Assembly: GCA_964618105.1 (NCBI GenBank)
Contig: CAZUAJ010000002.1
Coordinates: 1 to 59,501 of the forward strand
Direction of reading: 5' to 3'
From: an uncultured Clostridium sp.
Lineage (GTDB): Bacteria; Bacillota; Clostridia; TANB77; CAG-508
DNA: 59,501 bases
Position 1 is the first letter of the stretch. Each line of letters begins with the position of its first letter. Under the pieces are notes generated by a model. The model was not told the origin of the DNA. It saw only the letters and a list, made by a program, of their open reading frames with translations, and did no database searches. Made by a program: the position numbers and the translations under genes. Below are positions 524 to 58,441 of the stretch, piece after piece.

Positions 524-3025
524 TTATAATTTGCTTATAACTTTTGTAACTATTACAGTCATGTCGTCTTTTTTCATTCCAAATTCATTGTCAATTGCTT
601 CATTTAATATTATGTTTGCTATTTGTTGTGAATCATCTGAATTAATATCTTCTAATAGATATTTTACCCATAATTCTTTATTTATATATTCTGTATTTGA
701 ATCTATTATTCCATCACTGCACATTACTAATATATCACCATCTTCTAGGTCATAATCATATACAATTAAATCATTTTTTGCTATTATTCCTGTTGGAAGT
801 GTATGTGATTTTAGTAATTGCACTTCTTTGTTTCTTTTAATAAAGGTTGGACATGCTCCGTTTTTTATAAACTCCATATTTCCAGCAAATAAGTCTAATA
901 TTTGAATGTCTAAGGTAGTGTACATATCTTCTTTTGTATTTGCTATTAAGCTTGAATTTATTAGTTTTAAAGATGTTTCTTTATCAAAACCAGCTTTTAG
1001 CAATTTATCTAACATATTTATTGCAATTTTACTACTTTGATTAGCTTCTTTTCCTGAACCCATTCCATCACTAATTGCTAATAAATATTTCCCATCATCT
1101 AGTTTTGTTTCTAAATGGCTGTCTCCGGAAACTTTTGAACCTTCTTTTGTTGATGCAGCTACACCAATTTGCAATTTGTAATTATCTTCAGAATAATATG
1201 TAAATTTACAATTGTTTATTTCTTCTCTTATGCCACAATTTTGAGCTTGTATTACAAATTTGGTTTGTAGTACTTTTTCTAATATTTTTGCTATTTTTTT
1301 AATGTTACATTTTTTTCCTTCTATGTCATCACATAATTTTGTAAATACATCTACAAAAAAACGTCCTGAAGCATTTTGTTTTATTTTTATATCACTTACA
1401 TCAATTTCTTTTTGCTTTAATAAATTTAATATTTCTTTTTTTTGTGTTTCATAAGGTGTTTTTTCTTCTTGCTTTATTTCTTCTGCCATTTTTGATATTG
1501 CTTCTGAAACACCTTCTAGTTGTGAAGATACATTTTTCTTATTTTCTTGCATTTTCATTTTCCAAATGAAATTTACCTTACTTACTCTATATGCAGAATT
1601 TATTGCTTTTATCATTTTAGATATATCATTTTCTGTTTGTGTTCCTTTTTTATTAAATCCTACTATGTATAAATTATGTTTTTCAAAAATATTTGCTAAT
1701 TCTTTTTCAGTAATTATTTCATTTTTTAATAAAAATTCAAAAATTTCATCTACAATTCCACAATTGTTTTCACAAATATCGTTATAAAGTAAGTTGTTTT
1801 CTAGTTCTGAAATATTTACATCTAATTCTTCTTTAAAAATTTGCTCATTTGATAATTCTTGTGCATTAACATCTTTTTCTTCTAATACTGTACTTGCAGC
1901 TTCTTCATAGCTTTTAGCTAAATCTGCTATTGTTTCTGACATACTATTTAATTTAGTTATAGTTTCTTGATTTGATGTTAATGCTCTTGTTGTAGTTTCT
2001 GGTAATAACTTTTCTTTTCCATATAAATCTTGTATGTCAATTTTAAATCTTTTTGGAACAGCAAGTAAGCCTAATGATGCTATTAGAATTTCTTGTATTA
2101 ATATAATTGATGAAGTATTTCCATTAGCCACATAAGTTAATATTACATTACCTATTATAAATCCTATTATAACACCAATTTTGCCAAGCTTATAAAATAT
2201 TCCTGCTATTAAACCTGATATTGCATAAGAAGCCACCATTATTGGCTCATTGTTTGCAATTATTCCAAGTACAGTGCCTATTGTTATGCCACTTGTTGCA
2301 CCAACTAACATTCCGTTTTTCCAGCCTAATATTAATACTAGCAAAATGCTTAAAATGTTTCTTATACTGTAACCAAATATTTTTAAGTCTTGAAATGCAC
2401 AAAATGTAATTGCTAATAACAAGCTTGTACCTATTACTTCTTCTATTGAAAATGCTTTTTTTATACCAATTTCTTTTAACATTGGTATTGAGTTTGTAAA
2501 TATTTTATAAAATACATAGCTTGATATTGCAAGCATAACACTTGTTAACAAATCATAAATATAAAAATTTGTAAAAAGCATTGGAACAACTTGTACTAAT
2601 AGTACTGCAAAAAATAAATGTGGTCCCATTTTTGATTGCTCATTTATACTATCTTGTTCTTTTGGTCTTTTAATTAAAACTAATACAAAGAATACAAGTG
2701 TTGTTAAAAAATATGTTAATAAGCTATTTGTTCCAAATGAAATAAATGTACCTAATAATGTTAATATATAACTAATTCCAATTGGCATACGATTACTTAA
2801 CATTGCTGTTAGAAAGCTAATTGCAAATGGGCTTAAGCTTAGCATAATGTTTTGACTATTAAAACCTACCATTGAAATCATAAATGATATTATATAAATA
2901 GCAATATTTTGCACACTAAAAAGATTTGTTAATATTTGCTTAACAGACTCCTTATTGTTATGTTTATTTCCTTTTTCTATATTATTAAACACTTTTTTAC
3001 CACCCCTACTTTTTTTAATTTTCAT
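524..3025 (-). CDS. spoIIE: Stage II sporulation protein E (membrane PP2C phosphatase)
   Basis: 833 aa. The N-terminal about 330 aa contain many hydrophobic helices. The C-terminal PP2C/SpoIIE domain has ISDGMGSGKEA and VMCSDGI motifs. Confidence 0.85.
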   Translation of the reverse strand: MKIKKSRGGKKVFNNIEKGNKHNNKESVKQILTNLFSVQNIAIYIISFMISMVGFNSQNIMLSLSPFAISFLTAMLSNRMPIGISYILTLLGTFISFGTNSLLTYFLTTLVFFVLVLIKRPKEQDSINEQSKMGPHLFFAVLLVQVVPMLFTNFYIYDLLTSVMLAISSYVFYKIFTNSIPMLKEIGIKKAFSIEEVIGTSLLLAITFCAFQDLKIFGYSIRNILSILLVLILGWKNGMLVGATSGITIGTVLGIIANNEPIMVASYAISGLIAGIFYKLGKIGVIIGFIIGNVILTYVANGNTSSIILIQEILIASLGLLAVPKRFKIDIQDLYGKEKLLPETTTRALTSNQETITKLNSMSETIADLAKSYEEAASTVLEEKDVNAQELSNEQIFKEELDVNISELENNLLYNDICENNCGIVDEIFEFLLKNEIITEKELANIFEKHNLYIVGFNKKGTQTENDISKMIKAINSAYRVSKVNFIWKMKMQENKKNVSSQLEGVSEAISKMAEEIKQEEKTPYETQKKEILNLLKQKEIDVSDIKIKQNASGRFFVDVFTKLCDDIEGKKCNIKKIAKILEKVLQTKFVIQAQNCGIREEINNCKFTYYSEDNYKLQIGVAASTKEGSKVSGDSHLETKLDDGKYLLAISDGMGSGKEANQSSKIAINMLDKLLKAGFDKETSLKLINSSLIANTKEDMYTTLDIQILDLFAGNMEFIKNGACPTFIKRNKEVQLLKSHTLPTGIIAKNDLIVYDYDLEDGDILVMCSDGIIDSNTEYINKELWVKYLLEDINSDDSQQIANIILNEAIDNEFGMKKDDMTVIVTKVISKL

Positions 3026-3195
3026 ATATTTTAGTACAATATTTCTAAAATGTTTGTCGTTTTTGGTATGAAAATAAAAAAAGTTTTCTATCTTTTTTGC
3101 TATCTTTAGTGTTTTTATTTGCTTTTTCTCTTTTATATTTTATATTTTACATTATTTTTATTTGTTTTTCAATATATGAAAATATATTTTAGCTT

Positions 3196-3238
3196 AAAAA
3201 AGAAACCTTATAGGCGTTTGCCTATAAGATTTCTTTTG
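3196..3238 (-). terminator. Terminator after the adhesin gene
   Basis: agaaaccttataggc-gttt-gcctataagatttct hairpin followed by a U-run on the minus strand. Confidence 0.55.
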
Positions 3239-3241
3239 ATT

Positions 3242-6200
3242 TTATTTTTTAAGAACCTTTTTCTTAATTATAATTATTCCTACTGATAATAATGCAAATA
3301 CTGCAACTCCTACACCTAAGTATAAGTAAGTTTGACCAAATGGTGGTAAAATAATTATTTTTTCTGCTTTTGCAGAATCAACTTCTGCTGGTGCTTCATT
3401 TGGTTTTTGGTTACCTACTATAGAGTATGCCATTCTTCTACCTACTGTATTAGAATATTGAACAATTTCTGCAATGTTATCATAAGTCATATCATCTGAA
3501 GTGTTTTGTGATGTAATAGTTTGTGTTAATACTAATTTTTCACTTGTTGACTCTTTTGGTGATAATTTTTTATTTAATTTTTCTGTTTGTATAATTGTAG
3601 TATTATTTATTGCATTTTTTACATCATCACTTACATTTAAACTGTCTTTTGATGCAATTTGCCAATTTGAATTGTCTACTTCTCTGTATTGTAAATTGTT
3701 GCTTACATAATCTACTATTATATCTCCTGAAGTTTTTACTATATCTCCTGATTTTACACCTTTATAGTAGAATTCTTTTCCTGTGTAGTCTGTTTCACCC
3801 ACATTTTGTAATGTAAATTTGTATTCTATTTTAATTGTTGCTCCATGCATTAATTCTGAGTCTACAATAGCTTGAATTAATCCGTTTTTTCCGCCTGTAT
3901 ATAGTGAACCTACTAAACTATTTACATCATTTTGACTTGCATTATATTTGTATGCACTATTATATGATTTATAATATTTTGAGTTATTTATTAAGCTATA
4001 GTTTTTGCCTTTTGTCCATGATAAGTCTGGTACTGCTTCTTTTGCATCATATAATATAGTTCCATTAGCTAGTGTAATTTTTACATTTTCAACATGTTTA
4101 TTTAATTCTAATTGAGCTTTTGGTCTTTCTGTTAGTCCTAAATCAACATCTTTAATGTGATAATTATTTTCTTCTGTATTTGTAATTATTCTATTATATT
4201 CAACTTCTATTGAAATTACTCCAGTTTCCGCCTTCATTTGAGTATTCTTATTTACACTTGTTGAATTTGCTAATGTTTGAGCTAATTGATTTGTAACTCC
4301 ATGGTAATTATTACTGCTATATTTGTTTACGTCTTCTCTATAACTCCAAATATCTTTTGCATCAGATACTAATTTTTCATTTGATTTTTTAATGCTATAT
4401 CCATAGCTTCCTGATGTATTTTGATTTTCAGTATCTGTGTAACCAGAATATACTTTTTTACCTAATTCTTGTGCTGCACTAATTATTTTTTCAGATGCAT
4501 CTTCAAAATTTGTTCTACCGTTTTGGTCTATACCTTTTTGATATATTGTTGATTTGTAATCTTGACCATTGTATTTTGCATTATATTCTCCACCATAAGT
4601 GAATCTTATAACATAGTCCCCTGGTATATAATCTTCAAATAAATAAGTACCATCTGAACTTGTTTTTTGTTGGTTAGTATTTCCTAGTGTCGTTGTTTTC
4701 CAAATATATTCTTGCCCATTTGCTAATTTTTCTACTAATTCAACTTTTATGTTTTCTATACCAGCATTTTTTTCATTTCTTATGCCATCACCAATTATTG
4801 ATTCACCAACAACTTCTGTTCTTAAGTCTTCCCATACAGTACCATTTATTTTTCTAGTTTTACTTTCATCATAGAATACTCTTAGTCCTTTTGCTCTATC
4901 TGTATCGTCTTCATATTCTTTTTCGTTTTGTAAATCATTTTTATCAACATTACCTGGTACAGAGTCTATATCTAATAGCCCGGCATAGTCTTTTGAGCCT
5001 TTTACAACTTCATTTGGCAATTCAGTATTATCTTCATAATATGATGTATAGCCATTAATTTCTGCAACATTAAATTTTGCTTCATTTTCATTTTGATCTA
5101 AAATTACTTTTTCATTTTCTTTATTTACTTGGAAAGTTAAATAAATACATTCTTTTTCTCCTGCTGCTAGTTGTTTATCTTTTAGTCCATGAACATAGAT
5201 TACACCATTTTTTTCGTCGCTGTCCACATTTTTAGCATTTGAAATATATTTTAAATCTTCTTTATCCATTGTTTTAAAGTATTCATCATTGCTAAATGAA
5301 TTGTTGTCATAAGTTACCCATGATAAGTCTTTTCTGTATTTATAGTCACTATCAAAGTAGTCTGCTACTTCATCAATTGTATTTAAAATACCTCTTGATT
5401 GATTTCTAAGTGTAATTTTGTATGTTATAAATACTTCTAACGCTTTTCCACCATGTCCTTGTTCTCCATTATATTGTGCATTTGGATCATAATTCCAGTC
5501 TGTTTTAAATACTTCTCTATTATAGCTTCCATTATAATAACTTACATCAGATAGTCTTACACTTATGTCCCAATTATTTTCGTCATTATCATTTGCTCTA
5601 TTGTATGTATATATTTCGGTCTTTCCATTTATTTTTGTGACAGCTCTAAATACGTCTTTCTTTAAGGCTATGTCATTAATTTTTCTTCTTACTAGACCTA
5701 AATCAATATAAAATTGACCCGGATAAAGTGGTTTATATACTTTTGATCCAACTACAACATCTGACATATTTGAAAATTGCGCATTTCTAGCTTCCGAACC
5801 TGTTGAAAAACTTTCTTTTGAGTTTATAACAAATTCATCATAATATGGATATAAATCAAATCCGCCAACATTTTCAACCTTTCTTGATTTTGTATATGCT
5901 AAAATTTTACAATTGTTTATAAATTTTTCTTGATCTTTGTCTGGTTTTTTTGTTGCACTATTTAATTCATTTGTTTCTACTATTATTCCATTTTCTATTG
6001 CAAAGAAACTATCAATTACACCGTCTTGTACTAATTGTTGCATTGAATATACTTTTCCACCCTTATAATTATTGGGGTAAGCATTGATTTTTGAGAATTT
6101 TTCATTTAATTCTTCTCTTTCGGAATCTTTTTCAGTAGCTTTTGATGTAGTTAGCCATTGACTTGAATTATATTCTGGTCGACTATATGTTGTTGGTACA

Positions 6201-7802
6201 TATAATTGTCCATTATATTCAAATGTTACATAATATTTTTCTTGAGAATCAAGGTCATTAAATATGTAACAACCTGTTTCATCTGTTAAAGTTTCATTTA
6301 CTTTTTTATTTGATGAATTATATATTTCAACTTTAATATTTGGTAATGCAACATCATTTTTATCTCCACTTACGCCATTATATGGTGTGTTTTGCTTATC
6401 ATTCAAGCCTCCATCTACCCATACATATCCTGCTAAATCCATTGTAAGTTTTTGCTCTAATTCTAGTTCAAGCTCTTGTTCATAAAGTTGTCTACCTGCT
6501 GTTGCTGACATTAGCCATTGTTGTTGGAATTCATCCAAATAACATGTTGTTTTACAGCTATAATGATCATAATCATAACATGAAGATGTACAGTTACCTT
6601 CTTCGTCATCATTATGTATTGGGTGATAGTGATCTTGTTTCTCTGCATGAGCATAAGATACAATATATTTAACTCCACGTAATTTCGAATAATTTCCTTC
6701 TGCAACCATATATTGGAACTTTACTTTTATTTTTATTTTGCTAACAAAATTTTTATCGCTAGGATTTATCCCAGCATTTGGATTTTCAAATATTATTTCA
6801 AAATCTTGATCTGGTTCTGGATATACTTGCTCTGTTTCATCAACGAGCATATTGTCTGCTTCAAAAAATTCTGGTTCTTTTTCTTCTGTTCCTATAACAA
6901 ATTTTTGTATATCAATTCTTTCTTTTACTATATCTCCGCTTTTATTGTAACCAATTACATATATATCTGATATTCCACCAAAAGCAATGTTTCCATAAAT
7001 TCCTGTTGTATAGCTTAAATTTAATGGACCAACTGCATAAGTTTGAGAAGCTGAGTCAACTTTTGTATATACATCATCTATATTTGTATTATCTTCTGGA
7101 GCTAATCCTTCTTTACCCGCTTCTTCATTTTTTAATATTTCATCATAATATGTTGCATAATCTATTGCTTCTTTGTCATATATTGATGGTCCATCATGTC
7201 GTGAACCCCAGCCTTGTATAATTAGTCCCCAGTCAATTGTTTTACCATTTACTTCTACTTTATTTGTATTCCATAAAGCTTTTTGTTTTTCTTCACTCCA
7301 TTGACCATTTGGTTCTTCTGAAACTATGTATGAAACTGCTGGTGATAAATCCCCGCCACCATAATCTTTATATACTGGTGGTGTTTTATATCCTTCTCCA
7401 ACTGTTGAAGCACAGCCACAGCTAGATTCATAAGGTTTTTTTCCGCCGCCTGGTGTATGTGCTTCATATTCTAAAGCACTATAATTTCCGTTATACCTTT
7501 GGCTATATCTAATGTCATATCCGCCATCTTAAAGGAGAACCTGGGTTTATACAATATATTTCAAATCCACCATAGGTTGGAAGTTCAAAAGAATTCATAT
7601 TTTCTGGTAATGCTTCCCATAAACCTGTTTCAACACTTTTTAGCGGATAAGAAAGTTCTTCTACAACAGAACTTGATGATACTGTTCCTTTTCCATTTTT
7701 TACTTCTGCTTGTACATCATTATTAATAAAATAGAATAAACCCAAGAATATTGCAATTGTCATTATGTTTGTAAAAACTATTTTTATAATCTTACCCTTC
7801 AT
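3242..7802 (-). pseudogene. Giant cell-surface adhesin interrupted by a 1-nt frame disruption near 7515-7531. Has signal peptide, candidate thioester (TQXA-like) domain, SdrD-B/Cna-B-like domains and a C-terminal membrane anchor
   Basis: The 95-aa ORF 7515..7802 has a signal peptide (IMTIAIFLGLFYFINNDVQA) and ends ...FEIYCINPGSPLRWRI*. The next frame is open without any stop from 7528 to 3242 (I translated 6850-7528 by hand: DGGYDIRYSQRYNGNY...EEKQKALWNT...) and is continuous with the 1202-aa ORF. Total length 4561 nt = 3n+1. Repeats such as GTYLFEDYIPGDYVIRFTYGG are SdrD-B/Cna-B-like. The C-terminus is ILPPFGQ + hydrophobic stretch + KKKVLKK. Confidence 0.7.
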
Positions 7803-7819
7803 GTTTTTCTCCTTTCTTT

Positions 7820-10800
7820 TTAATTTTTATTTAAAACTCTTTTTTTAATTTCAAATATACCAAATCCAATTATTGCCACAACTGCTAACATAAGCACAAC
7901 ATAAAATGTTATTTGAGCTCCTGTTACAATACCTATTACAATATCTGCTTTTGACATATCGTCTTCATCTTCTTGTTTATTTGCTATTGTTGAGTCTATG
8001 TCTTTTAGACCTTGTTCATTATAGCTTTCATATATTTCTGCATTATTGTTTAGTATTCCAATACTGTCTTCTGTTATTTGTTTTAATAAAATTAATGTAA
8101 CTTCTTTAGATTCACCTGGATTAATAACTGTATTTTCTAAACTTGTATTATATACATTTCCGTCTTTTGCTAAATACCAATCTTTGTTTAATTCTGTGTT
8201 AAATACAACTCCTTTTGGTAAATAGTCAGCTATTTTTTTTGCATATCCTGCAACTCCGCCTTGATTTGTAACAACAATTTTATATTCAATAACAATACTG
8301 CTTTTTCCAAGGTTTTGTTTTAATACTTCTATTTTAGTATTTTTTACATCATTGTATTCGAATGTTTCTGTTCCTGATGTTGGAGTTGTTCTTGTTATTT
8401 TAGTAATATATTTGTCTAATTTTAAGTCAAATTTTTCTGCCACATATACACCAATGTCTATATCTCTTATATTGCTATTTGTTATTTTTATTGAATCAGA
8501 TATACCTACTATTGTTTTTACACCATTTACAGTCATATTTATATCAATTACATCTGAATTAAGTGTTTCGTCTACACCTTTTTTCTTATATTCTGTAAGG
8601 TTGTAAATTCCATTTCCATAATCAAATATTACAAAGTACTCATTTGGTAGTAAATTATCAAACTGATATTTTCCTTGACTATCTGTTGTTGTTATTTTTT
8701 CTGCATCTGTTTGAGTATCTTTTACAATTTTACTTGTTTTCTTATATGCAAGCATTACTTTAATGTTTGATAGTAGTTCTTCTTCTTCATCTCTCATGCC
8801 GTTTTTATTACTGTCAATCCATGCTGTACCTGTTATTTTATATGTACTTGTTGTTGGATTGCTTGGATTACTTGGAGTGGTTGGCAATTTGTGTGCTTCT
8901 TCATTATATTCTATTATATTAGTTACAGAATTTGTTGCTGTTTCATTCAATCCATTTGCACTAATTAAAACATTATTAATTATTTGTTTATCATTTTTAT
9001 CTGGTAATAAATTTGCTTTTGCTATTATTTTTATTTCTTTACTTTCACCAACTTCTAAACTTGTGATTGTAATTTCCACTTTTCCATTATTAAGTTTATT
9101 TGTTTTTTGTTCTTTTCCTGCATATTCATATATTGCTTCTTCAAATGTTAAACCTTCTGGCAAGCTATCTTTTATTTTTATATTATTAATGGTAGATTTA
9201 CCACTGTTTGTTATTTTAAAGCTATAAGTAACATTTTCTGTTTCTTTTATATATTTAGGTGTTGATGTTAACTCTGATATTTTTAAGTCTATAATTTCTA
9301 ATGCATATTCAGAAATATTAGAATAATGTTCTTCAGTTCCTTCTGCTTTAGCTTTTGCCATTAAAGAAATGTTTCCTTCAAATTTTTCTATTCCAATATT
9401 AAGCATAATTACTTTTTTAATATCTATAGTATCTATTTTTATTGTTAATACATTAGATGTTTTATCATAAGTTATACCTTCAGTAGTGCCATTTTCTGAT
9501 GACCAACTTTCTTTAATAATTGCATCTTTATATGTAGTTCCTTTTGGTAAAGGTATTGTTATTACTGTGTTGATTAGTTTACCACTTCTTGAAATGTTTT
9601 TTACATTTATAGTGTATTCTATACTTTCACCGTTTTTTAGTACAATATCTTCTGCTATATTACTAGACATATTAATTTCGATTTTACCTTCTTGTAAATT
9701 AATAGTACATTCATTAGAAGGAATTTCTCCTTCTAGTCCATTAGAAGATACATATATTTTGTTGCTAACTACTTTTGGGAATCTTGTTTTTTCATTTAGT
9801 TCTTCTTTTGTTATGTCTTCAGCTGTTGAAAGTGCTGAACTTTTATTCATTTTTAAATAATAACAAATTTCCTTACTTTCACCAACTTTTATTGTACCTA
9901 TATTGATAGTTTTTGTTGTATCATCAATTTCAAAAAATCCATTTCCTGTAACATAGTCTATAAATTTAGTATATTCTGGCAATGGAATTCTAACTTTGGC
10001 ATTTGTTGCATCTAAGTTCCCAGTGTTTTTTATAGTTGCTTTCATTTTTACAATTTGGCCTTCTCTTACAGTTTCTGCTGTTGATTTTAATTCTATTGAT
10101 AATTCTGGGCCTGACCCTGTTGTTAATTTTACTATAGGTGCGGTTTTTGATTCAAATATTTCACCAAGTGTTGAAATATTTGTATAATATACTTTATACA
10201 CTTCATTTACTGTATTGTTATATGTAATACCTTCTGGTATTTCAATTTGATATATTATTTCTAATGTTTCTCCATTTTTCATTTCATAGTCATTTAATAC
10301 TATCATGTATGATTGTACATTTGCTGTTTTTTCAGTATTCCAGTTATTGCTTTCATTCAATTCTTTTGTTGCTTCTGCATTTTCTGAATAATAAACTGTG
10401 TATTTTGAAGTGTCTATTCCTTTTAATGTTACATTTCCTACTAATTTTGTACTAAATGTTGAACCTAGTTCTTTTTCTGTGTCTATTTCCTTATTGCCTT
10501 TTACTGGTATTCTACCTAATATTACAATGTCTTTAATATTATTGTTATAATTATTTATTACTTTTCCAGTAATTGTTGCCGTTCTTTTTTCTGTATAAGT
10601 TTTTATTGTTCCTGTTATTCCTTCATTTGATATTGACAATAATTCTTTTTCACCTTTTGCATAATTTGAAACACCATTTGCAGTAATTATTCCTTGTGGT
10701 GCTACAAAGTTTAATTTTGTTTCAACTGTTCCTTTTGCGTTTGTAGCAACATCATTTGAATTTACATATTCCATTGTTATTTTGTTTTCATTGTTTGGTG

Positions 10801-12787
10801 TTAATTCTCTTGCTTTTATGTTTGTGTTAAATATAATTATTGTTCCTTTATATTCAGCATCTATTGTATATTCTGTTTGTTTTCCTTCTAGTTCTACATT
10901 AATTACTATTTGTCCATTTTCTTTTACTAATTGTAAATCTTTTATTTTTAATCCATTTGACATTAAAATATCATAGCTATTTATTTTGAATTTTGAAATA
11001 TGTTCAGGAAATTTTATTTTTAATTTTGTATTTGAGTATAAAGCATTGTTCACACTTGATGTGTCTAGTACTGCTCTTATTTCTACATTTTCATTTTCTA
11101 CAGCTGTTGTTAAGTCTTGTTTGTTTACTTCAACACTTATAATTGTTTTTGGCTCTGCTAATGATATTTCAGTTGTTTCATTGTTTAGTTGTAAAGCTAA
11201 TTTAGTAAATGTTTTTAATTGTTGTTTTGAATAATTGATATCTTCTTTTATTGCTTTTTGTACATTAATAGTTAATTGTCCTTCTGTAACAGGTTTACTT
11301 GTTAATATTGTTAATTTATTGTTGTTTAATGAATTAATGTCTAATACATAATTATTATTTTCTACAGTTGATGTTTTATTTATAGTTCCGATTTTAGTTT
11401 TTTGCATATCATATATTTCAATTTTTCCTTCTTCTCCAAGGATTTTTTCAAATACATTTTTTGCTATAGTTATTGTTTTATTGTATGCATAGTTGTTATT
11501 TGATATTGTTGTTGAATTTTTTTCTCCATCTTTTGTTACAAATTGGTCAACTTTTTGTTCAAATTTTATTTCTTCTGTTAGTTGTGGTGCACTTACTATT
11601 GCATTATAACTTACATTGTATGTTGTTTCCTTTTTGCTTTTTGCATCATAGTTTGCATACATTTGTCCTTTTGCTATACTTGTTTCTGAACTAACACTAT
11701 AGTCTACTAATTCTCCTACTGTTTTATTTGCTTTTATTTCAGTATTAGTCTCTTCTATTTTTATGGTTTTGTCTTGATTACTATATACTTTTATGTTTCC
11801 ACTTATTTTTAAGTTTGTATCAATTCCGTGTTCAACAGAGAAGTCATGGATTTGCTTATTTTCATATACAAATGTAACTAAGTATTCGTCACTTACATTT
11901 TTAAGCCAAGCTATTTTATTGCTTAAGTTTTTAACATTAATTGTTAAGTTTCCTGTTTCTGCATTGTATGAATAGTTTTCGCTATTAAAGTTTAATCCAT
12001 TTTTTTCACCGTTTGTTGCTTCAGTTTTATTTGCAACTACTGTAACCAATGTTGGTTTATTATTATTAATTTCTGGAACTTGAATATTAAGTTCTGTTTC
12101 TTTTGTTGGTACAACGTTATCTTTTATTCCAGAATTTATTTTTGCTTGTAAAATAACTCCTTGTTTTTCTTCAGTAGCATAAGTAATGTATTTTGTTAAT
12201 TCTGCTTTTACTTCTGGTTTAATTTCATTGTCTGTTGTTACATCCCAAGAAAGCTTGTTTATAATTTCTTTTGAAACATTTTTTTCTTTTGCATTGCTAT
12301 TTATGTATGTTGCTGTAAATACAGTTTTTGTTTCTTTTGAAAAATTATCTACTGCTACTTCATTTGATTTTAAAATATTAATTGGTACCTCTATTTTTAC
12401 ATTAGAGCCACCATTTATTTTATTTAATAAAATTTTGTTGTTTTCTATATCAACATTTTGAATATTTAAATCGCTAATTGATTTATCAATTTCAAAGTTT
12501 GTATTTTGAAAGCTTATTACTCCTTTTTCTAAATAACCTTTTCCACTTACTTTAATGTCTAGATACATTTTGGCAGTTGAGTTCATTTTTTCTGTTTTAG
12601 TATGACTTCCATCTTCAAAATATGCATTAAATTCTACATTTTGTTCTTGTGTTTTAGAGTTTTGATTTAATATTTCATTTTCTGATAATGCATAGGTTAT
12701 TCCATAAACTCCTATAACTGACAAATTTGCGCTCATTAAGCACATTAGTAATAATACAGCTATTAGTTTTTTTAGTAGTTTGTTCAT
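7820..12787 (-). CDS. Giant cell-surface protein with DUF11/CARDB-like repeats, an SdrD-B-like domain and a C-terminal membrane anchor
   Basis: 1655 aa with N-terminal signal peptide (LIAVLLLMCLMSANLSVIG). Repeats include EGQIVKMKATIKNTGNLDATNAKVRIPLPEYTKF and ENVTYSFKITNSGKSTINNIKIKDSLPEGLTF (DUF11-type). Also TGTAWIDSNKNGMRDEEE...GKYQFDNLLPNEYFVIFDY. The C-terminus is GIVTGAQ + hydrophobic stretch + KKRVLNKN. Confidence 0.75.
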   Translation of the reverse strand: MNKLLKKLIAVLLLMCLMSANLSVIGVYGITYALSENEILNQNSKTQEQNVEFNAYFEDGSHTKTEKMNSTAKMYLDIKVSGKGYLEKGVISFQNTNFEIDKSISDLNIQNVDIENNKILLNKINGGSNVKIEVPINILKSNEVAVDNFSKETKTVFTATYINSNAKEKNVSKEIINKLSWDVTTDNEIKPEVKAELTKYITYATEEKQGVILQAKINSGIKDNVVPTKETELNIQVPEINNNKPTLVTVVANKTEATNGEKNGLNFNSENYSYNAETGNLTINVKNLSNKIAWLKNVSDEYLVTFVYENKQIHDFSVEHGIDTNLKISGNIKVYSNQDKTIKIEETNTEIKANKTVGELVDYSVSSETSIAKGQMYANYDAKSKKETTYNVSYNAIVSAPQLTEEIKFEQKVDQFVTKDGEKNSTTISNNNYAYNKTITIAKNVFEKILGEEGKIEIYDMQKTKIGTINKTSTVENNNYVLDINSLNNNKLTILTSKPVTEGQLTINVQKAIKEDINYSKQQLKTFTKLALQLNNETTEISLAEPKTIISVEVNKQDLTTAVENENVEIRAVLDTSSVNNALYSNTKLKIKFPEHISKFKINSYDILMSNGLKIKDLQLVKENGQIVINVELEGKQTEYTIDAEYKGTIIIFNTNIKARELTPNNENKITMEYVNSNDVATNAKGTVETKLNFVAPQGIITANGVSNYAKGEKELLSISNEGITGTIKTYTEKRTATITGKVINNYNNNIKDIVILGRIPVKGNKEIDTEKELGSTFSTKLVGNVTLKGIDTSKYTVYYSENAEATKELNESNNWNTEKTANVQSYMIVLNDYEMKNGETLEIIYQIEIPEGITYNNTVNEVYKVYYTNISTLGEIFESKTAPIVKLTTGSGPELSIELKSTAETVREGQIVKMKATIKNTGNLDATNAKVRIPLPEYTKFIDYVTGNGFFEIDDTTKTINIGTIKVGESKEICYYLKMNKSSALSTAEDITKEELNEKTRFPKVVSNKIYVSSNGLEGEIPSNECTINLQEGKIEINMSSNIAEDIVLKNGESIEYTINVKNISRSGKLINTVITIPLPKGTTYKDAIIKESWSSENGTTEGITYDKTSNVLTIKIDTIDIKKVIMLNIGIEKFEGNISLMAKAKAEGTEEHYSNISEYALEIIDLKISELTSTPKYIKETENVTYSFKITNSGKSTINNIKIKDSLPEGLTFEEAIYEYAGKEQKTNKLNNGKVEITITSLEVGESKEIKIIAKANLLPDKNDKQIINNVLISANGLNETATNSVTNIIEYNEEAHKLPTTPSNPSNPTTSTYKITGTAWIDSNKNGMRDEEEELLSNIKVMLAYKKTSKIVKDTQTDAEKITTTDSQGKYQFDNLLPNEYFVIFDYGNGIYNLTEYKKKGVDETLNSDVIDINMTVNGVKTIVGISDSIKITNSNIRDIDIGVYVAEKFDLKLDKYITKITRTTPTSGTETFEYNDVKNTKIEVLKQNLGKSSIVIEYKIVVTNQGGVAGYAKKIADYLPKGVVFNTELNKDWYLAKDGNVYNTSLENTVINPGESKEVTLILLKQITEDSIGILNNNAEIYESYNEQGLKDIDSTIANKQEDEDDMSKADIVIGIVTGAQITFYVVLMLAVVAIIGFGIFEIKKRVLNKN

Positions 12788-31154: not shown

Positions 31155-33188
31155 TTATTCTTCATCTATTGGTCCAAATAATTCATCAAATTTTGCTTCT
31201 AATTCTTTTTGAACATCTACAGAAAATACTTCTGTTTCTTCATCATCTTGTGGTAATATTGGAGCATCTTCTTTAATATTTTCTATTGTTGTTTTATTTT
31301 CTGTTTCTAACGGTTTATCAAATTTTTCTTCAACTTGATTATTTCCTTTATTATTTTCTTTTATGTTATCATCTATATCATCTTCAAATAAATCATCTAA
31401 GGATTCTACTTTTAAATCGTTCTTTTTAGTGTTTTCTTCGTCTTCCACATAAGGATTATATGGATTATATTTTCTCCATTTTCCCCTATCTCCAATATTA
31501 AAATCCAAGTGATTTAATGTATATTCTGATAATTTTTTAACCATCTGACTTTCAAAATAATAATATTTTTTAGCTTTAATTGGTTTAATACCTTTTTCAT
31601 AAATAATACAGTCGTCATTGTCCATTCTTCTTAATTCGTCAGGAGTCATTAATGCTCTTGCTAATATTTGATCAGATTCACTAAGTCCTTGTCTATGATA
31701 CTGCTTATCTCTATTTATTGATATACTATCTCTTGTAATTGTTTTTTCGCCTAAAGCTTTTGAAAAATATTCTACTGTTTTATATGAGTTACTTCCTAAA
31801 AATACATGTGTATCACAGTTACCCATAATTGTTTCATAAGATTTTTCATATACAGCTTCTAATTGGTCTAAGTTTTGTAATATAACACTAAATGAAATTC
31901 CCCTACTTCTACTTGTTGATATTTTTTTATCAAAATCTGGTATTTTACCAATATTAGCAAACTCGTCACATATAAAGAATGTTGGAACTTTTAGTCTTCC
32001 ACCATTTGCATCAGCAAAATTATATAACTGTTGTATCATTTGAGAGAAAAATATTGTTAATAAAAAGTCATAAGCTGTATGTGTATCTGAAGATATAACA
32101 TATACTGCTGTTTTTTTACTTCCAATTTGTTCAAAGTCAATTGTATCAGTTGAAGTTACTTCCGCAATTTCTTTTGAATCAAATTTTCCTAGCTTAGATT
32201 GCAATGAACTTAAAATTGAACCATAAGTCTTTTCAGGTGCTATTTCAATTGATTTGTAATACATTCTGGCTGGATGGTCATAAGGTAATTGATTTATGAG
32301 TTCTGTTAATAAATTGCTTCCACCATTTGTATTAGCTGCTCTTACTAATTCTGCACAACTTGCTAAATTTTGTTCTTCTTCTGGTCTAGTAGCCATTAAA
32401 TAATAGATTAACGACTTTAATAGCATTTCTGCCATGTCGTCCCAATATGGGTCTGAACTACTTCCTGCTTCTGATTTTTGCCCTTTTACAATTGTATTTG
32501 CAATAACGTCAACATCTATTTCACTTGAAATATGCATTAAAGGGTTATAACCATCACTATTTGCTGGATTTACTAAGTTTAATACTTTAATTTCATAGCC
32601 ATTTTTTTCTAAAAATCCGGCTGTTTTATCATATAATTCACCTTTTGGATCTGTAAATACGTAAGAACCTAACATTTGGTATGCATTTGGTATTGAATAT
32701 GATGCTGATTTACCAGAACCAGATCCACCCACTACCAATACATTTACGTTTCCTCTTTTATCTACTGGCAAATAATGATTTTGTGCTAATAAAATTCCTT
32801 TGTTTTTACTTAAAATTTGGTATTGTTCTCCACCTTCGCACCAATCACTTGATCCGTGTTCAATGTCTTTATATTCACTTTTAGCTTTTGACCTAAATAA
32901 ACCTATTGTTGAAAAAATTAAATATATAATTGTATAATAAGCTAAAGTTTTTAAAAAAACATTTATATATTTTTCACTAAATATTTCTGTAAAAGTATTG
33001 AAACTTTTTATACTTTTAAAAACATTTTGTATAAATTCACTAAAATCAAAAATTCCATTGTTAGTTGACTCAACAATGGAATATGAAATTGGTGCAACAA
33101 GTATTACAGCTAAAATTAACCATAATACAGCTATTATTATTAAACTTTTTTTGTTATCTTTTAATGTTTTTTTTACTTTTACGTTCAT
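31155..33188 (-). CDS. Type IV secretion coupling protein (VirD4/TraG/TraD family ATPase) with acidic C-terminal tail
   Basis: Two N-terminal TM helices. Walker A is VVGGSGSGKSASYSIPN. Also FTDPKGELY, and FFICDEFANIGKIPDFDKKISTSRSRGISFSVILQNLDQLEAVY (Walker B / TraG-D_C). The last about 100 aa are D/E-rich. The ATG at 33188 has a better RBS (AAAGGTGATAAAAGTT) than the GTG at 33200. Confidence 0.8.
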   Translation of the reverse strand: MNVKVKKTLKDNKKSLIIIAVLWLILAVILVAPISYSIVESTNNGIFDFSEFIQNVFKSIKSFNTFTEIFSEKYINVFLKTLAYYTIIYLIFSTIGLFRSKAKSEYKDIEHGSSDWCEGGEQYQILSKNKGILLAQNHYLPVDKRGNVNVLVVGGSGSGKSASYSIPNAYQMLGSYVFTDPKGELYDKTAGFLEKNGYEIKVLNLVNPANSDGYNPLMHISSEIDVDVIANTIVKGQKSEAGSSSDPYWDDMAEMLLKSLIYYLMATRPEEEQNLASCAELVRAANTNGGSNLLTELINQLPYDHPARMYYKSIEIAPEKTYGSILSSLQSKLGKFDSKEIAEVTSTDTIDFEQIGSKKTAVYVISSDTHTAYDFLLTIFFSQMIQQLYNFADANGGRLKVPTFFICDEFANIGKIPDFDKKISTSRSRGISFSVILQNLDQLEAVYEKSYETIMGNCDTHVFLGSNSYKTVEYFSKALGEKTITRDSISINRDKQYHRQGLSESDQILARALMTPDELRRMDNDDCIIYEKGIKPIKAKKYYYFESQMVKKLSEYTLNHLDFNIGDRGKWRKYNPYNPYVEDEENTKKNDLKVESLDDLFEDDIDDNIKENNKGNNQVEEKFDKPLETENKTTIENIKEDAPILPQDDEETEVFSVDVQKELEAKFDELFGPIDEE

Positions 33189-33213
33189 AACTTTTATCAC
33201 CTTTTCTTTGGTT

Positions 33214-40147: not shown

Positions 40148-40232
40148 CTTTTCCTTTCTTTTTTTATAATTTTTTTGTTAATGTTTTTTAAATCTTCTTT
40201 TATTACAATGTACAATATATAATTTATTTTTG

Positions 40233-40390
40233 AAATAATGTTATATAATATTTTTTGTAGTGAGGCTGTGGGGACCAGCGAGCTAGAAGGCGTTACAAGT
40301 GTTTTTTAAATATTTGAGCTAGCACTGAAATTGTATTACGCCTTCTTGCGAAGTAGGGATGGAACGAAAAAAACATTATATAACATTGTT
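40233..40390. repeat. Element E1: GC-enriched structured element with imperfect about 23-nt inverted-repeat arms; shares its core with E2
   Basis: Arms are aaataatgttatataatattttttg (40233-40257) and cgaaaaaaacattatataacattgtt (40365-40390). The core is GTGAGGCTGTGGGGACCAGC, a hairpin (AGAAGGCGTTACAA...TTGTATTACGCCTTCT), then GCGAAGTAGGGATGGAACG. Confidence 0.5.
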
Positions 40391-40487
40391 GAAAAGTATA
40401 TTTAAACATTATCACATATATATTACTACTACAAAAAAAATTTTTTTAAACATTACATTTCCATATATTTAACATTGTTACATCTTT

Positions 40488-57948: not shown

Positions 57949-58051
57949 TTATTTATTCCTTTTCTTATTTTTTACTTAGCTATTTTTCTTATAATTATAC
58001 AATTTTTTTATATTTATAACAAGCGAACAGATTAAACATTTTTTCATTTTC

Positions 58052-58308
58052 GTTACAAGATACTGGTTTTGTTAAATTGTTTGGATTAGAGTATGTACGT
58101 CCTGCAACGGAGAAAGTATTTTTATTTTTCTGCGTTCGTCCCAACTGCATAATAAGCTGTAAATAAAATTTTACTTTCGTAAATTTTATAACAGCTTATT
58201 ATTTGTCGGTCCCCACACAAGCTCACTTTGAAAATAAAAATGTACTTTCTCCTGCGCGGACTTTTAGTATCTTTTCCAAACAATTTAACAAAACCAGTAT
58301 CTTGTAAC
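58052..58308. repeat. Element E2: 257-bp hairpin element with 34-bp perfect terminal inverted repeats; core related to E1
   Basis: gttacaagatactggttttgttaaattgtttgga (58052-58085) is the exact reverse complement of 58275-58308. The arms continue imperfectly inward. The inner stem is ataataagctgt / acagcttattat (58149-58160 / 58191-58202). The unpaired strands are TGCGTTCGTCCCAACTGC and TTGTCGGTCCCCACACAAGCTCAC. Confidence 0.6.
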
Positions 58309-58441
58309 TAATTTTCTAATAATATCTTTTGTAACAAATATATTAAAATTATCATAATCTATTAATAAAAATACATATATTAAGCATTTTTTAAAAGCAA
58401 TTTCTATTTTACCGTAAATATACGAAAGGAATGATAAATTT

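Follow-up and report, generated by a model that had tools for sequence, protein, structure and literature searches.

Two intergenic stretches of a contig from an uncultured Clostridium sp. share a short asymmetric core enclosed by inverted repeats, which raises the question of whether they are structured RNAs, DNA hairpins recognised by a protein, or parts of something else. The window referred to below is the whole stretch of DNA that was analysed (59,501 nucleotides). An earlier note, made from the sequence alone, had called the two elements E1 (40233-40390, + strand) and E2 (58052-58308, - strand), and both were found at these places with the sequences that it described.

E1 and E2 in the window

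E1 occupies the spacer that separates sleB (Hydrolase_2) from ypeB, both of which are encoded on the other strand, and E2 is flanked by a PP-loop (TtcA-like) gene and a small divergent ORF. The 5' motif GTGAGNNTGT(N0-2)GGGGACC has exactly two matches in the window (40260-40276 on the + strand and 58226-58208 on the - strand) and none in any of 100 shuffled windows. The covariance model of the family described below recovered E1 and E2 alone, at 101 and 129 bits; the next matches in the window were partial ones that read the inner hairpins on the opposite strand (≤22 bits), and unrelated matches scored ≤16 bits. Both elements are predicted to fold more stably than shuffled sequences (z = -5.5 for E1 and z = -16.2 for E2). 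Their parts are listed in Table 1.

The 34-bp perfect inverted repeat reported for E2 is indeed present and extends to 42 nt at 93%, and its GTTACAA terminus is common to the multi-copy long-form elements. The 5' arm of E1 is locus-specific, with only the core-adjacent T-run and ATAT common to the family, while the lower stem of its inner hairpin is that of the CAG:508-type copies L153, L154, L166 and L174. No target duplication was recognisable in the flanks of E1.

Table 1. Parts of E1 and E2, in window coordinates and in the 5' to 3' order of each element.
Feature	Coordinates	Strand	Remarks
E1 5' outer arm	40230..40256	+	AT-rich; pairs with 40367-40393; weaker pairing outward to 40214
E1 conserved 5' core strand, GTAGTGAGGCTGTGGGGACCAGC	40257..40279	+	Pattern and covariance-model match
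E1 inner hairpin, GAGC-TAGAAGGCGTTAC ... GTATTACGCCTTCT-TGC	40280..40349	+	Predicted fold; stem covaries across the family
E1 conserved 3' core strand, GAAGTAGGGATGGAACG	40350..40366	+	Family comparison and covariance-model match; GUAGG opposite CCAGC of the 5' strand
E1 3' outer arm	40367..40393	+	Inverted repeat I1 and fold; weaker pairing outward to 40410
E2 target-site duplication, upstream copy, GAAAATTA	58309..58316	-	Abuts the terminal repeat; 7/8 match to 58044-58051
E2 terminal inverted repeat, 5' copy, GTTACAAGATACTGG...	58275..58308	-	34 bp, perfect with 58052-58085
E2 middle arm, 5' side	58227..58274	-	Imperfect pairing with 58086-58132
E2 conserved 5' core strand, GTGAGCTTGTGTGGGGACCGAC	58205..58226	-	Identical to the family consensus
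E2 inner hairpin, AAATAATAAGCTGTTA ... TTTACAGCTTATTAT	58149..58204	-	Fold and pair analysis
E2 conserved 3' core strand, GCAGTTGGGACGAACG	58133..58148	-	GUUGG pairs with CCGAC of the 5' strand
E2 middle arm, 3' side	58086..58132	-	Fold and inverted-repeat analysis
E2 terminal inverted repeat, 3' copy, ...CCAGTATCTTGTAAC	58052..58085	-	Perfect with 58275-58308
E2 target-site duplication, downstream copy, GAAAATGA	58044..58051	-	7/8 match to the upstream copy

Among 77 related species, the sleB-ypeB spacer usually measures from -24 to about 130 nt (median near 20) and in no case (0/77) holds an E1-type element; a strain-level check for the exact SleB and YpeB proteins of the E1 locus found no record. 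E2 is absent from the corresponding spacer of the closest relative available (L392, PP-loop protein 91% identical), where a single related GAAAAATTA stretch is apparently present, although this spacer aligns poorly and was assessed by eye. A Logan contig from the species of the window, which encodes an identical PP-loop protein, breaks inside the 3' terminal repeat of E2.

The earlier note could assign the elements to no RNA family, and searches against Rfam 15 agree with it: at the gathering threshold, the only matches in the window are tRNA and SRP RNA. At E ≤ 10, E1 is still without a match, and the E2 region yields only weak chance matches, most of them outside the element; those overlapping E2 fall within its AT-rich inner hairpin at ≤16 bits. 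Rfam families including 6S, HEARO, Y RNA and the known ribozymes were rejected for want of any match near the gathering score, and a literature search by sequence strings returned unrelated eukaryotic matches only. By inspection, the conserved positions do not fit a K-turn, a loop E, an ECF-sigma promoter (GAAC...CGT) or the RecV site AWAGTWNCCNTTW-N6-WAANGGNWACTWT (PMC12282940), and consensus scans of the conserved parts found neither a sigma-70 promoter nor an intrinsic terminator. A small-peptide gene was ruled out because the reading frame differs between E1 and E2 types, which are shifted relative to each other by a 2-nt indel; stops are also present.

A dispersed intergenic family in gut Clostridia

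To find relatives, we scanned genomes and metagenomes with the pattern TGTGGGGACC-N50-80-GTWGGGAY(N)GAACG; a looser first pattern applied to genomes had matched mostly by chance, in GC-rich genomes. The pattern located 59 loci in GTDB species representatives, two of which (2/59) were GC-rich chance matches, and 55 more loci in metagenomes, for a pooled count of 112 copies. The pattern scan thus found more than 110 copies; this multi-copy distribution, like the target duplications and the inverted cores described below, was out of reach of the earlier note. Scans of viral contigs, plasmids and phages returned none. The carriers are MAGs of AT-rich gut Clostridia, together with metagenomes, from rabbit, chicken, human, mouse and shrew; they include rabbit 'Lapin' bins, a chicken MAG, Clostridium sp. 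CAG:508, Candidatus Scatovivens, and Hadza and other human gut samples. The family inhabits AT-rich Clostridia of the gut that are relatives of Clostridium sp. CAG:508 and Candidatus Scatovivens. In several genomes there are 5-10 copies, with a maximum of about 10 per MAG.

All copies examined for context, namely the genome loci and those of the window, are intergenic (59/59), and 39 of the 45 that have genes on both sides lie between co-directional genes. Relative to these co-directional neighbours, 22 copies are antisense and 17 sense; such random orientation upholds the argument already made against a cis riboswitch.

The elements measure 140-257 bp and are nested palindromes, with long inverted-repeat arms around a central module. 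In all copies the arms are nearly perfect inverted repeats of 20-45 bp, reaching about 80 bp in the GTTACAA... long forms. In the module between them, about 90-125 nt long, the 5' strand, (A)AGUGAG-CUUGU-GUGGGGA-CCGAC, and the 3' strand, G-YAG-UUGG-GACGAACG, are conserved and enclose an inner hairpin that varies. One genome contains identical arms around two unrelated inner hairpins as well as an identical hairpin between different arms, indicating that the parts of the element recombine.

The central module is predicted to fold better on one strand

We built the covariance model from 36 copies and read conservation from an alignment of 52 unique copies. Since TGTGGGGACC and GGGAYGAACG are both imposed by the search pattern, their invariance is partly a matter of ascertainment. 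AGUGAG, CCRAC/GUUGG and CUGUUA/UUUACAG are free of this constraint, and AGUGAG, which lies outside the pattern, is at least 90% conserved in the 52 copies.

The earlier note had described a conserved core held in helices of unrelated sequence. The core is conserved, but the inner stems are not wholly unrelated, CUGUUA and UUUACAG recurring in them. It had further held that the two core strands cannot pair with each other, which proved incorrect: CCGAC of the 5' strand pairs with GUUGG of the 3' strand, beside possible tandem G.A pairs and a short helix. The five pairs are C-G, C-G, G.U or A-U, A-U or G.U, and C-G, and the CCAGC/GUAGG combination of E1-type copies makes four of them (4/5) with one A.A mismatch. 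G-GA-CC and GG-GA-C could extend this helix through tandem G.A pairs. For the adjacent short helix, CUUGU/ACGAG and GCUUGU/ACGAAC both fit, as these positions are nearly invariant, with U/C variation always facing G; divergent members favour the version with a G-rich bulge of 7-13 nt opposite 1-3 nt. Two bulges are left unpaired, a 5' one rich in purines, (A)AGUGAG, and one rich in G, GUGGGGA. Three divergent members found in other species by model search (L198, L210 and L240) keep GGGGACCRACAA, GYAGUUGG and the G-rich bulge, and have either swapped the adjacent helix (ACGAC/GUCGU, AAAGUAA/UUACUUU) or reduced the inner hairpin to a few pairs.

In the 36-sequence alignment, 95.7% of cells hold standard pairs, compared to 39-47% in controls with the partner shifted by 1-3 columns. 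Changes on both sides occur at 12 pairs, and the observed covariation score was reached by no shuffle. With its conserved core and covarying helices, the family is a genuine one, as had been proposed from two copies.

Of 52 copies, 50 have a more stable predicted fold on the strand that carries the G-rich motifs (forward strand) than on the complementary one, the mean difference being 11 kcal/mol. Considering non-redundant copies, the forward strand is better in 19 of 23 for the inner hairpin alone (p = 0.001) and in 18 of 19, with one tie, for core plus hairpin. Inner hairpins contain 26 G.U pairs versus 2 A/C mismatches, whereas the outer arms are strand-symmetric (43 versus 50 G.U pairs, equal energies). 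Because the asymmetry resides in the centre and not in the arms, it is apparently the centre that is selected as a one-strand fold, and this fold appears to be that of RNA or of single-stranded DNA of the forward strand.

Independently transcribed genes for trans-acting small RNAs, for which the element merely supplies a hairpin, might produce such a pattern. They would account for a strand-specific, covariation-supported fold that is more conserved than its flanks at most orthologous sites (see below) and for an orientation that is independent of the neighbouring genes. Many copies even have a -10-like TATAAT/TATATT 6-10 nt upstream of GUGAG; however, this box lies within the palindromic AT-rich arm and for that reason occurs equally on the other strand, and both a -35 box and a terminator are absent. 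The tight packing of the copies between co-directional genes is a further difficulty, and the variation of copy number and presence among sister species better fits a mobile element than a housekeeping RNA. We consider small RNA genes of this kind quite improbable.

Arms and module insert together

The long forms (215-250 bp; about 20 copies), which come from a chicken MAG, a MAG associated with mouse and a single metagenome, terminate in GTTACAATTCACAG...CTGTGAATTGTAAC, and in several of them perfect 8-bp direct repeats (TGATAATT, AAAATTGC and AACTTTTC) abut the GTTACAA termini. One short-form site allowed a comparison of filled and empty states. The site is filled in L313, L316 and L176, just past the stop codon of the upstream gene, and is empty in the sister species L314 and L315 (upstream protein 94% identical), which read ...TAAAAATTAG... 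without interruption. TAAAAATT is found once in the empty sites and is duplicated at the filled site. Since the empty sites of L314 and L315 lack the entire element, it is the whole element, arms included, that constitutes the insertion. The elements thus insert as whole units with their arms and duplicate 8 bp of their target. Target duplications, terminal inverted repeats and filled and empty sites together substantiate the connection to mobile elements that the earlier note had suspected.

Clear target duplications are those of the GTTACAA long forms and of the one short form with an empty-site comparison; most short forms have none that is recognisable. Perfect 8-mer duplications were called at 5 of 57 non-redundant copies versus 4 of 114 controls, a modest enrichment, and automatic calling is confounded in the short forms because they target palindromic A/T runs. 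Only one other MITE that shares these termini was seen, with a different centre, at 10125-10385 of L278.

The searches for a source of mobility covered about 0.5 Mb of carrier loci and the genes of the window. In the carrier loci, no 5'-only or 3'-only half-motif had a partner within 4 kb, as an autonomous copy would, no pair of GTTACAA terminal repeats 0.7-3 kb apart marked a parent element, and no transposase with matching termini was found. The RAYT, TnpA(Y1), TnpB or IscB gene that had been put forward as acting on the hairpins is missing from the 43 window proteins scanned, as are other transposases, recombinases and integrases. When 440 ORFs beside 57 loci were clustered all-against-all, the recurrent protein families were common ones only, with M23 peptidase at the top.

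The absence of an obvious target duplication from most short forms would suit a folded single-stranded DNA site, either one for an HUH/Y1 transposase (IS200/IS605 end, PATE, REP-RAYT) or an attC-like one for an integron integrase. So would a strand-specific fold that tolerates G.T pairs, and the conservation of the irregular part between variable helices recalls attC sites, as does a loose likeness of CCAAC/GUUGG to the attC R box. An attC site has R''/R' (RYYYAAC/GTTRRRY) and L boxes with extrahelical bases and occurs in cassette arrays next to intI. The attC boxes do not fit the present elements, in which the only resemblance, a loose one of GACCAAC / GTTGGGA, is located deep in the hairpin and not at its base; the copies are solitary between housekeeping genes and form no cassette arrays, and the window encodes no integrase. 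IS200/IS605 elements and REPs are not known to make a target duplication, whereas the long forms here, and the short form whose empty site could be compared, have 8-bp duplications and terminal inverted repeats. The orientation bias expected of lagging-strand-dependent elements is also lacking, and Y1, RAYT, TnpB, IscB and integrase genes are neither present in the window nor recurrent near the other loci. A single-stranded DNA site is therefore most improbable, and the analogy to REP, PATE or IS200/IS605 ends drawn in the earlier note fails, given target duplications, terminal inverted repeats and no strong orientation bias.

Persistence, constraint and inversion of the module

Many copies occupy orthologous sites in different species; once inserted, an element is thus retained in place from one species to the next. 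Core and hairpin at the M23-peptidase site are 97-98% identical, compared to 85-90% for 400 bp of mostly coding flank, and the module is likewise more conserved than the flanks in four further orthologous pairs. In the pairs L061/L139 and L144/L156 it is the flanks that are better conserved. For the majority of orthologous sites, then, conservation is higher in the central module than in the coding DNA beside it. The arms behave otherwise: at the L144/L156 site they have diverged to 85% identity, and still the two arms within each element match almost perfectly. Arms thus diverge in sequence yet remain complementary.

Comparison of the flanks of the 112 copies revealed 21 orthologous site groups, 6 of which (6/21) contain the module in both orientations. 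Within a single species, at the CAG:508 site, 14 contigs have one orientation and 2 the opposite one, with flanks 98.9% identical. Alignment of this site shows that the 21-bp arms have not moved and that only the segment between them is reversed, the breakpoints lying in the arms. Conversely, an orthologous site with 15 members shows no flip, and in all of the roughly 20 recently amplified long forms the core points the same way with respect to the asymmetric portions of the arms, so that inversion looks occasional or rare. The flips look as expected from recombination or template switching between perfect repeats of 20-35 bp, events that would also keep the arms perfect and strand-symmetric. 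No conserved recombinase half-sites were found in the arms, which apart from an A/T run are unrelated between copies.

The presence of both orientations at 6 of 21 orthologous sites, even within one species, raises the question of whether the module is an inverton, flipped at high frequency by a site-specific recombinase so that an orientation-dependent signal switches the neighbouring genes. The switches of C. difficile are comparable in being short segments between unrelated inverted repeats (PMC5903667, PMC7446863, PMC12282940), and many copies carry TTTGTA at the arm-core junction, resembling the RecV spacer tttgta (PMC12282940). However, the shared core orientation of the long forms and the unflipped 15-member site make flipping look rare, and the arms lack conserved half-sites on which a recombinase could act. 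No recombinase is encoded in the window and none recurs near the 57 loci, though an enzyme like RecV might act in trans from elsewhere in the genome; the module contains neither a sigma-70 promoter nor a terminator to be switched, and its neighbours are housekeeping genes. We find an inverton very unlikely.

A probable MITE-like family with a constrained centre

Taken together, our results best support the view that E1 and E2 belong to a previously undescribed MITE-like family of nested palindromes with a conserved central module, probably one of RNA, that is under constraint; we put the probability of this reading at about 0.6. Small size (under about 400 bp) without a transposase gene, terminal repeats around a core, target duplications, and multiple copies with filled and empty sites are features that define bacterial MITEs (PMC3184786), and the family shows them. 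The family is neither a classic stand-alone structured RNA nor an IS200/REP-type hairpin, and its varying terminal repeats around a conserved centre are the reverse of an ordinary MITE family.

In this MITE-like family, the module would be recognised in single-stranded form, most probably as RNA that arises when transcription of host operons runs through the element. In such a transcript, a forward-oriented centre would form an irregular rod with the G-rich bulge beside the CCRAC/GUUGG helix, and the arms would form a 20-35 bp duplex suited to a double-strand-specific RNase. The effect, if any, might be an orientation-dependent processing or stability of the surrounding mRNA, like that of ERIC and Correia elements. 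The mobilising transposase would be encoded away from the element. One observation sits awkwardly with this scheme: the random orientation of the copies relative to genes fits poorly with a module that needs to be read in one direction from host transcripts. A bolder version, which we regard as unlikely, would give the module a function of its own as a structured RNA that is portable: a rod with a G-rich bulge, either catalytic or bound by a protein, that a MITE has spread through operons and whose activity on the host transcript is switched by inversion between the arms of the element; if true, it would be a natural transposon-borne flip-switch at the RNA level.

If the reading as a MITE-like family with a constrained module holds, the usual pattern of conservation is inverted: the ends vary and the constraint falls on the centre, where changes are compensatory and one strand is preferred, and the host or some protein would read this centre as a folded single strand. 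The family would then offer a natural case of inverted-repeat-mediated inversion and of concerted evolution of repeat arms, and a candidate RNA or protein recognition motif in an uncultured and abundant group of gut Clostridia. It would also carry a practical warning, as such elements break metagenome assemblies and could be misread as riboswitch-like. If the module is inert, the family is simply another of bacterial MITEs.

Comparison with known systems

Three kinds of known elements invite comparison. REPIN/REP-RAYT elements and the PATEs derived from IS200/IS605 are likewise dispersed intergenic hairpins that undergo compensatory evolution and depend on an enzyme encoded elsewhere. They are characterised by the lack of target duplication and of long terminal repeats, by a conserved stem with a GTAG-type head and by a Y1 transposase; neither the conserved GTAG-headed stem nor dependence on Y1 was found here.

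The invertible switches of C. difficile (flgB, cwpV, cmrRST and pdcB) are 150-200 bp long and lie in 5' UTRs between unrelated inverted repeats; RecV flips most of them, and some act by RNA-level termination in the leader (PMC5903667, PMC7446863, PMC12282940). As in these switches, a segment of about 100-200 bp between inverted repeats that vary with the site occupies an intergenic or 5' position and is found in both orientations. The switches differ in having unique sequences, imperfect repeats of 10-21 bp, a proposed RecV-binding motif and fast switching, whereas the present family repeats a conserved module between longer, perfect repeats, apparently flips rarely, and has no recombinase-binding motif in its arms and no recombinase near its loci.

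The closest parallels in general form are the Correia/NEMIS elements of Neisseria, ERIC/IRU of enterobacteria, and RUP and BOX of pneumococcus, which are likewise small (140-260 bp), non-coding, multi-copy and intergenic. Both they and the present elements have terminal inverted repeats around a core, duplicate their target and are known from filled and empty sites, and both form very stable predicted stem-loops that are likely co-transcribed with neighbouring genes; ERIC affects mRNA decay in an orientation-dependent manner (PMC3184786). Unlike in those families, the termini here differ between copies and subfamilies, the parent insertion sequence was not found, and it is an asymmetric centre that is conserved, is predicted to fold better on one strand, has covarying helices, and is found inverted between its arms. 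What sets the present family apart from Correia, ERIC, RUP and BOX is therefore its conserved asymmetric centre, the compensatory evolution and preferred strand of that centre, and its ability to flip.

Possible exchange of element centres

At an orthologous intergenic site in two species (loci L144 and L156 of our comparison set), elements of the E1/E2 family have outer arms that are 85% identical, enclosing unrelated inner hairpins and cores in opposite orientations. This combination suggests that the centre was replaced via recombination with another copy. A palindromic element at locus L278 (see the table) has the termini of the family's long forms, TTACAATCCACAA ... CTGTGAATTGTAAC, and a different centre. 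This centre contains CGAACGAAGTGAGGGC, which resembles a direct fusion of the family core's 3′ end to its 5′ start.

Palindromic sequences in the sleB-ypeB spacer

More palindromic fragments are present in the part of the sleB-ypeB spacer that remains to the right of E1, and they may be the remnant of a decayed second element or a longer outer layer of E1 itself. Inverted-repeat analysis revealed that one segment of this region, ACTACAAAAAAAATT, is the reverse complement (93%) of the arm-core junction of E1, AATATTTTTTGTAGT, and that a second segment pairs across E1 with ACAATGTACAATATAT. Two related metagenome-assembled genomes, from which loci L181 and L206 derive, carry different, unrelated palindromic insertions, likewise long, in the same spacer. 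Hairpin elements seem to have landed repeatedly in the sleB-ypeB spacer.

Palindromic elements, other repeats and genes
Feature	Location	Strand	Remarks
Palindromic fragments	window 40394-40487		right of E1
ACTACAAAAAAAATT	window 40428-40442
Segment pairing with ACAATGTACAATATAT	window 40463-40478		partner at 40205-40220
Palindromic insertion	L181 ~2970-3280		related species
Palindromic insertion	L206 ~2975-3120		related species; arms ~30 bp, include TTGGGACGG
Palindromic element	L278 10125-10385		260 bp
VirD4/TraG-type type IV secretion coupling protein	window 31155-33200	-	T4SS-DNA_transf, TraG-D_C
Two very large predicted surface proteins	window 3242-12787	-	1202 and 1655 aa; adjoin spoIIE
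E2-equivalent spacer	L392 1010-1500		~350 nt unrelated sequence
GC-rich hairpins in copy flanks	L132 ~4920-5030 and 5890-6000		rabbit metagenome-assembled genome; e.g. TGTAGGGGCGGATTCCATATCCGCCCGAAAG

Assembly breaks and surrounding sequences

Numerous contigs from independent assemblies terminate inside a copy or at its edge (L126, L129, L164, L168, L170, L171, L172, L079, L138 and L257), and the sole same-species contig for E2 breaks inside the 34-bp repeat of that element. The family elements fragment metagenome assemblies.

Elsewhere in the window, the coupling protein gene stands alone amid housekeeping and sporulation genes, no further conjugation genes being recognised in the window. 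The two predicted surface proteins contain SdrD_B, DUF11 and CarboxypepD_reg repeats.

In L392, the available locus most closely related to that of E2, unrelated sequence lies in the spacer equivalent to that of E2. It includes a locally GC-rich stretch, GAAGGGAGGCGGTGCAT, preceded upstream by a promoter-like TTGTTT-N17-TATAAT. Possible readings of this arrangement are a leader and a small gene. A different repeat occurs in the copy flanks of L132, where GC-rich hairpins are arranged in tandem pairs and look REP-like.
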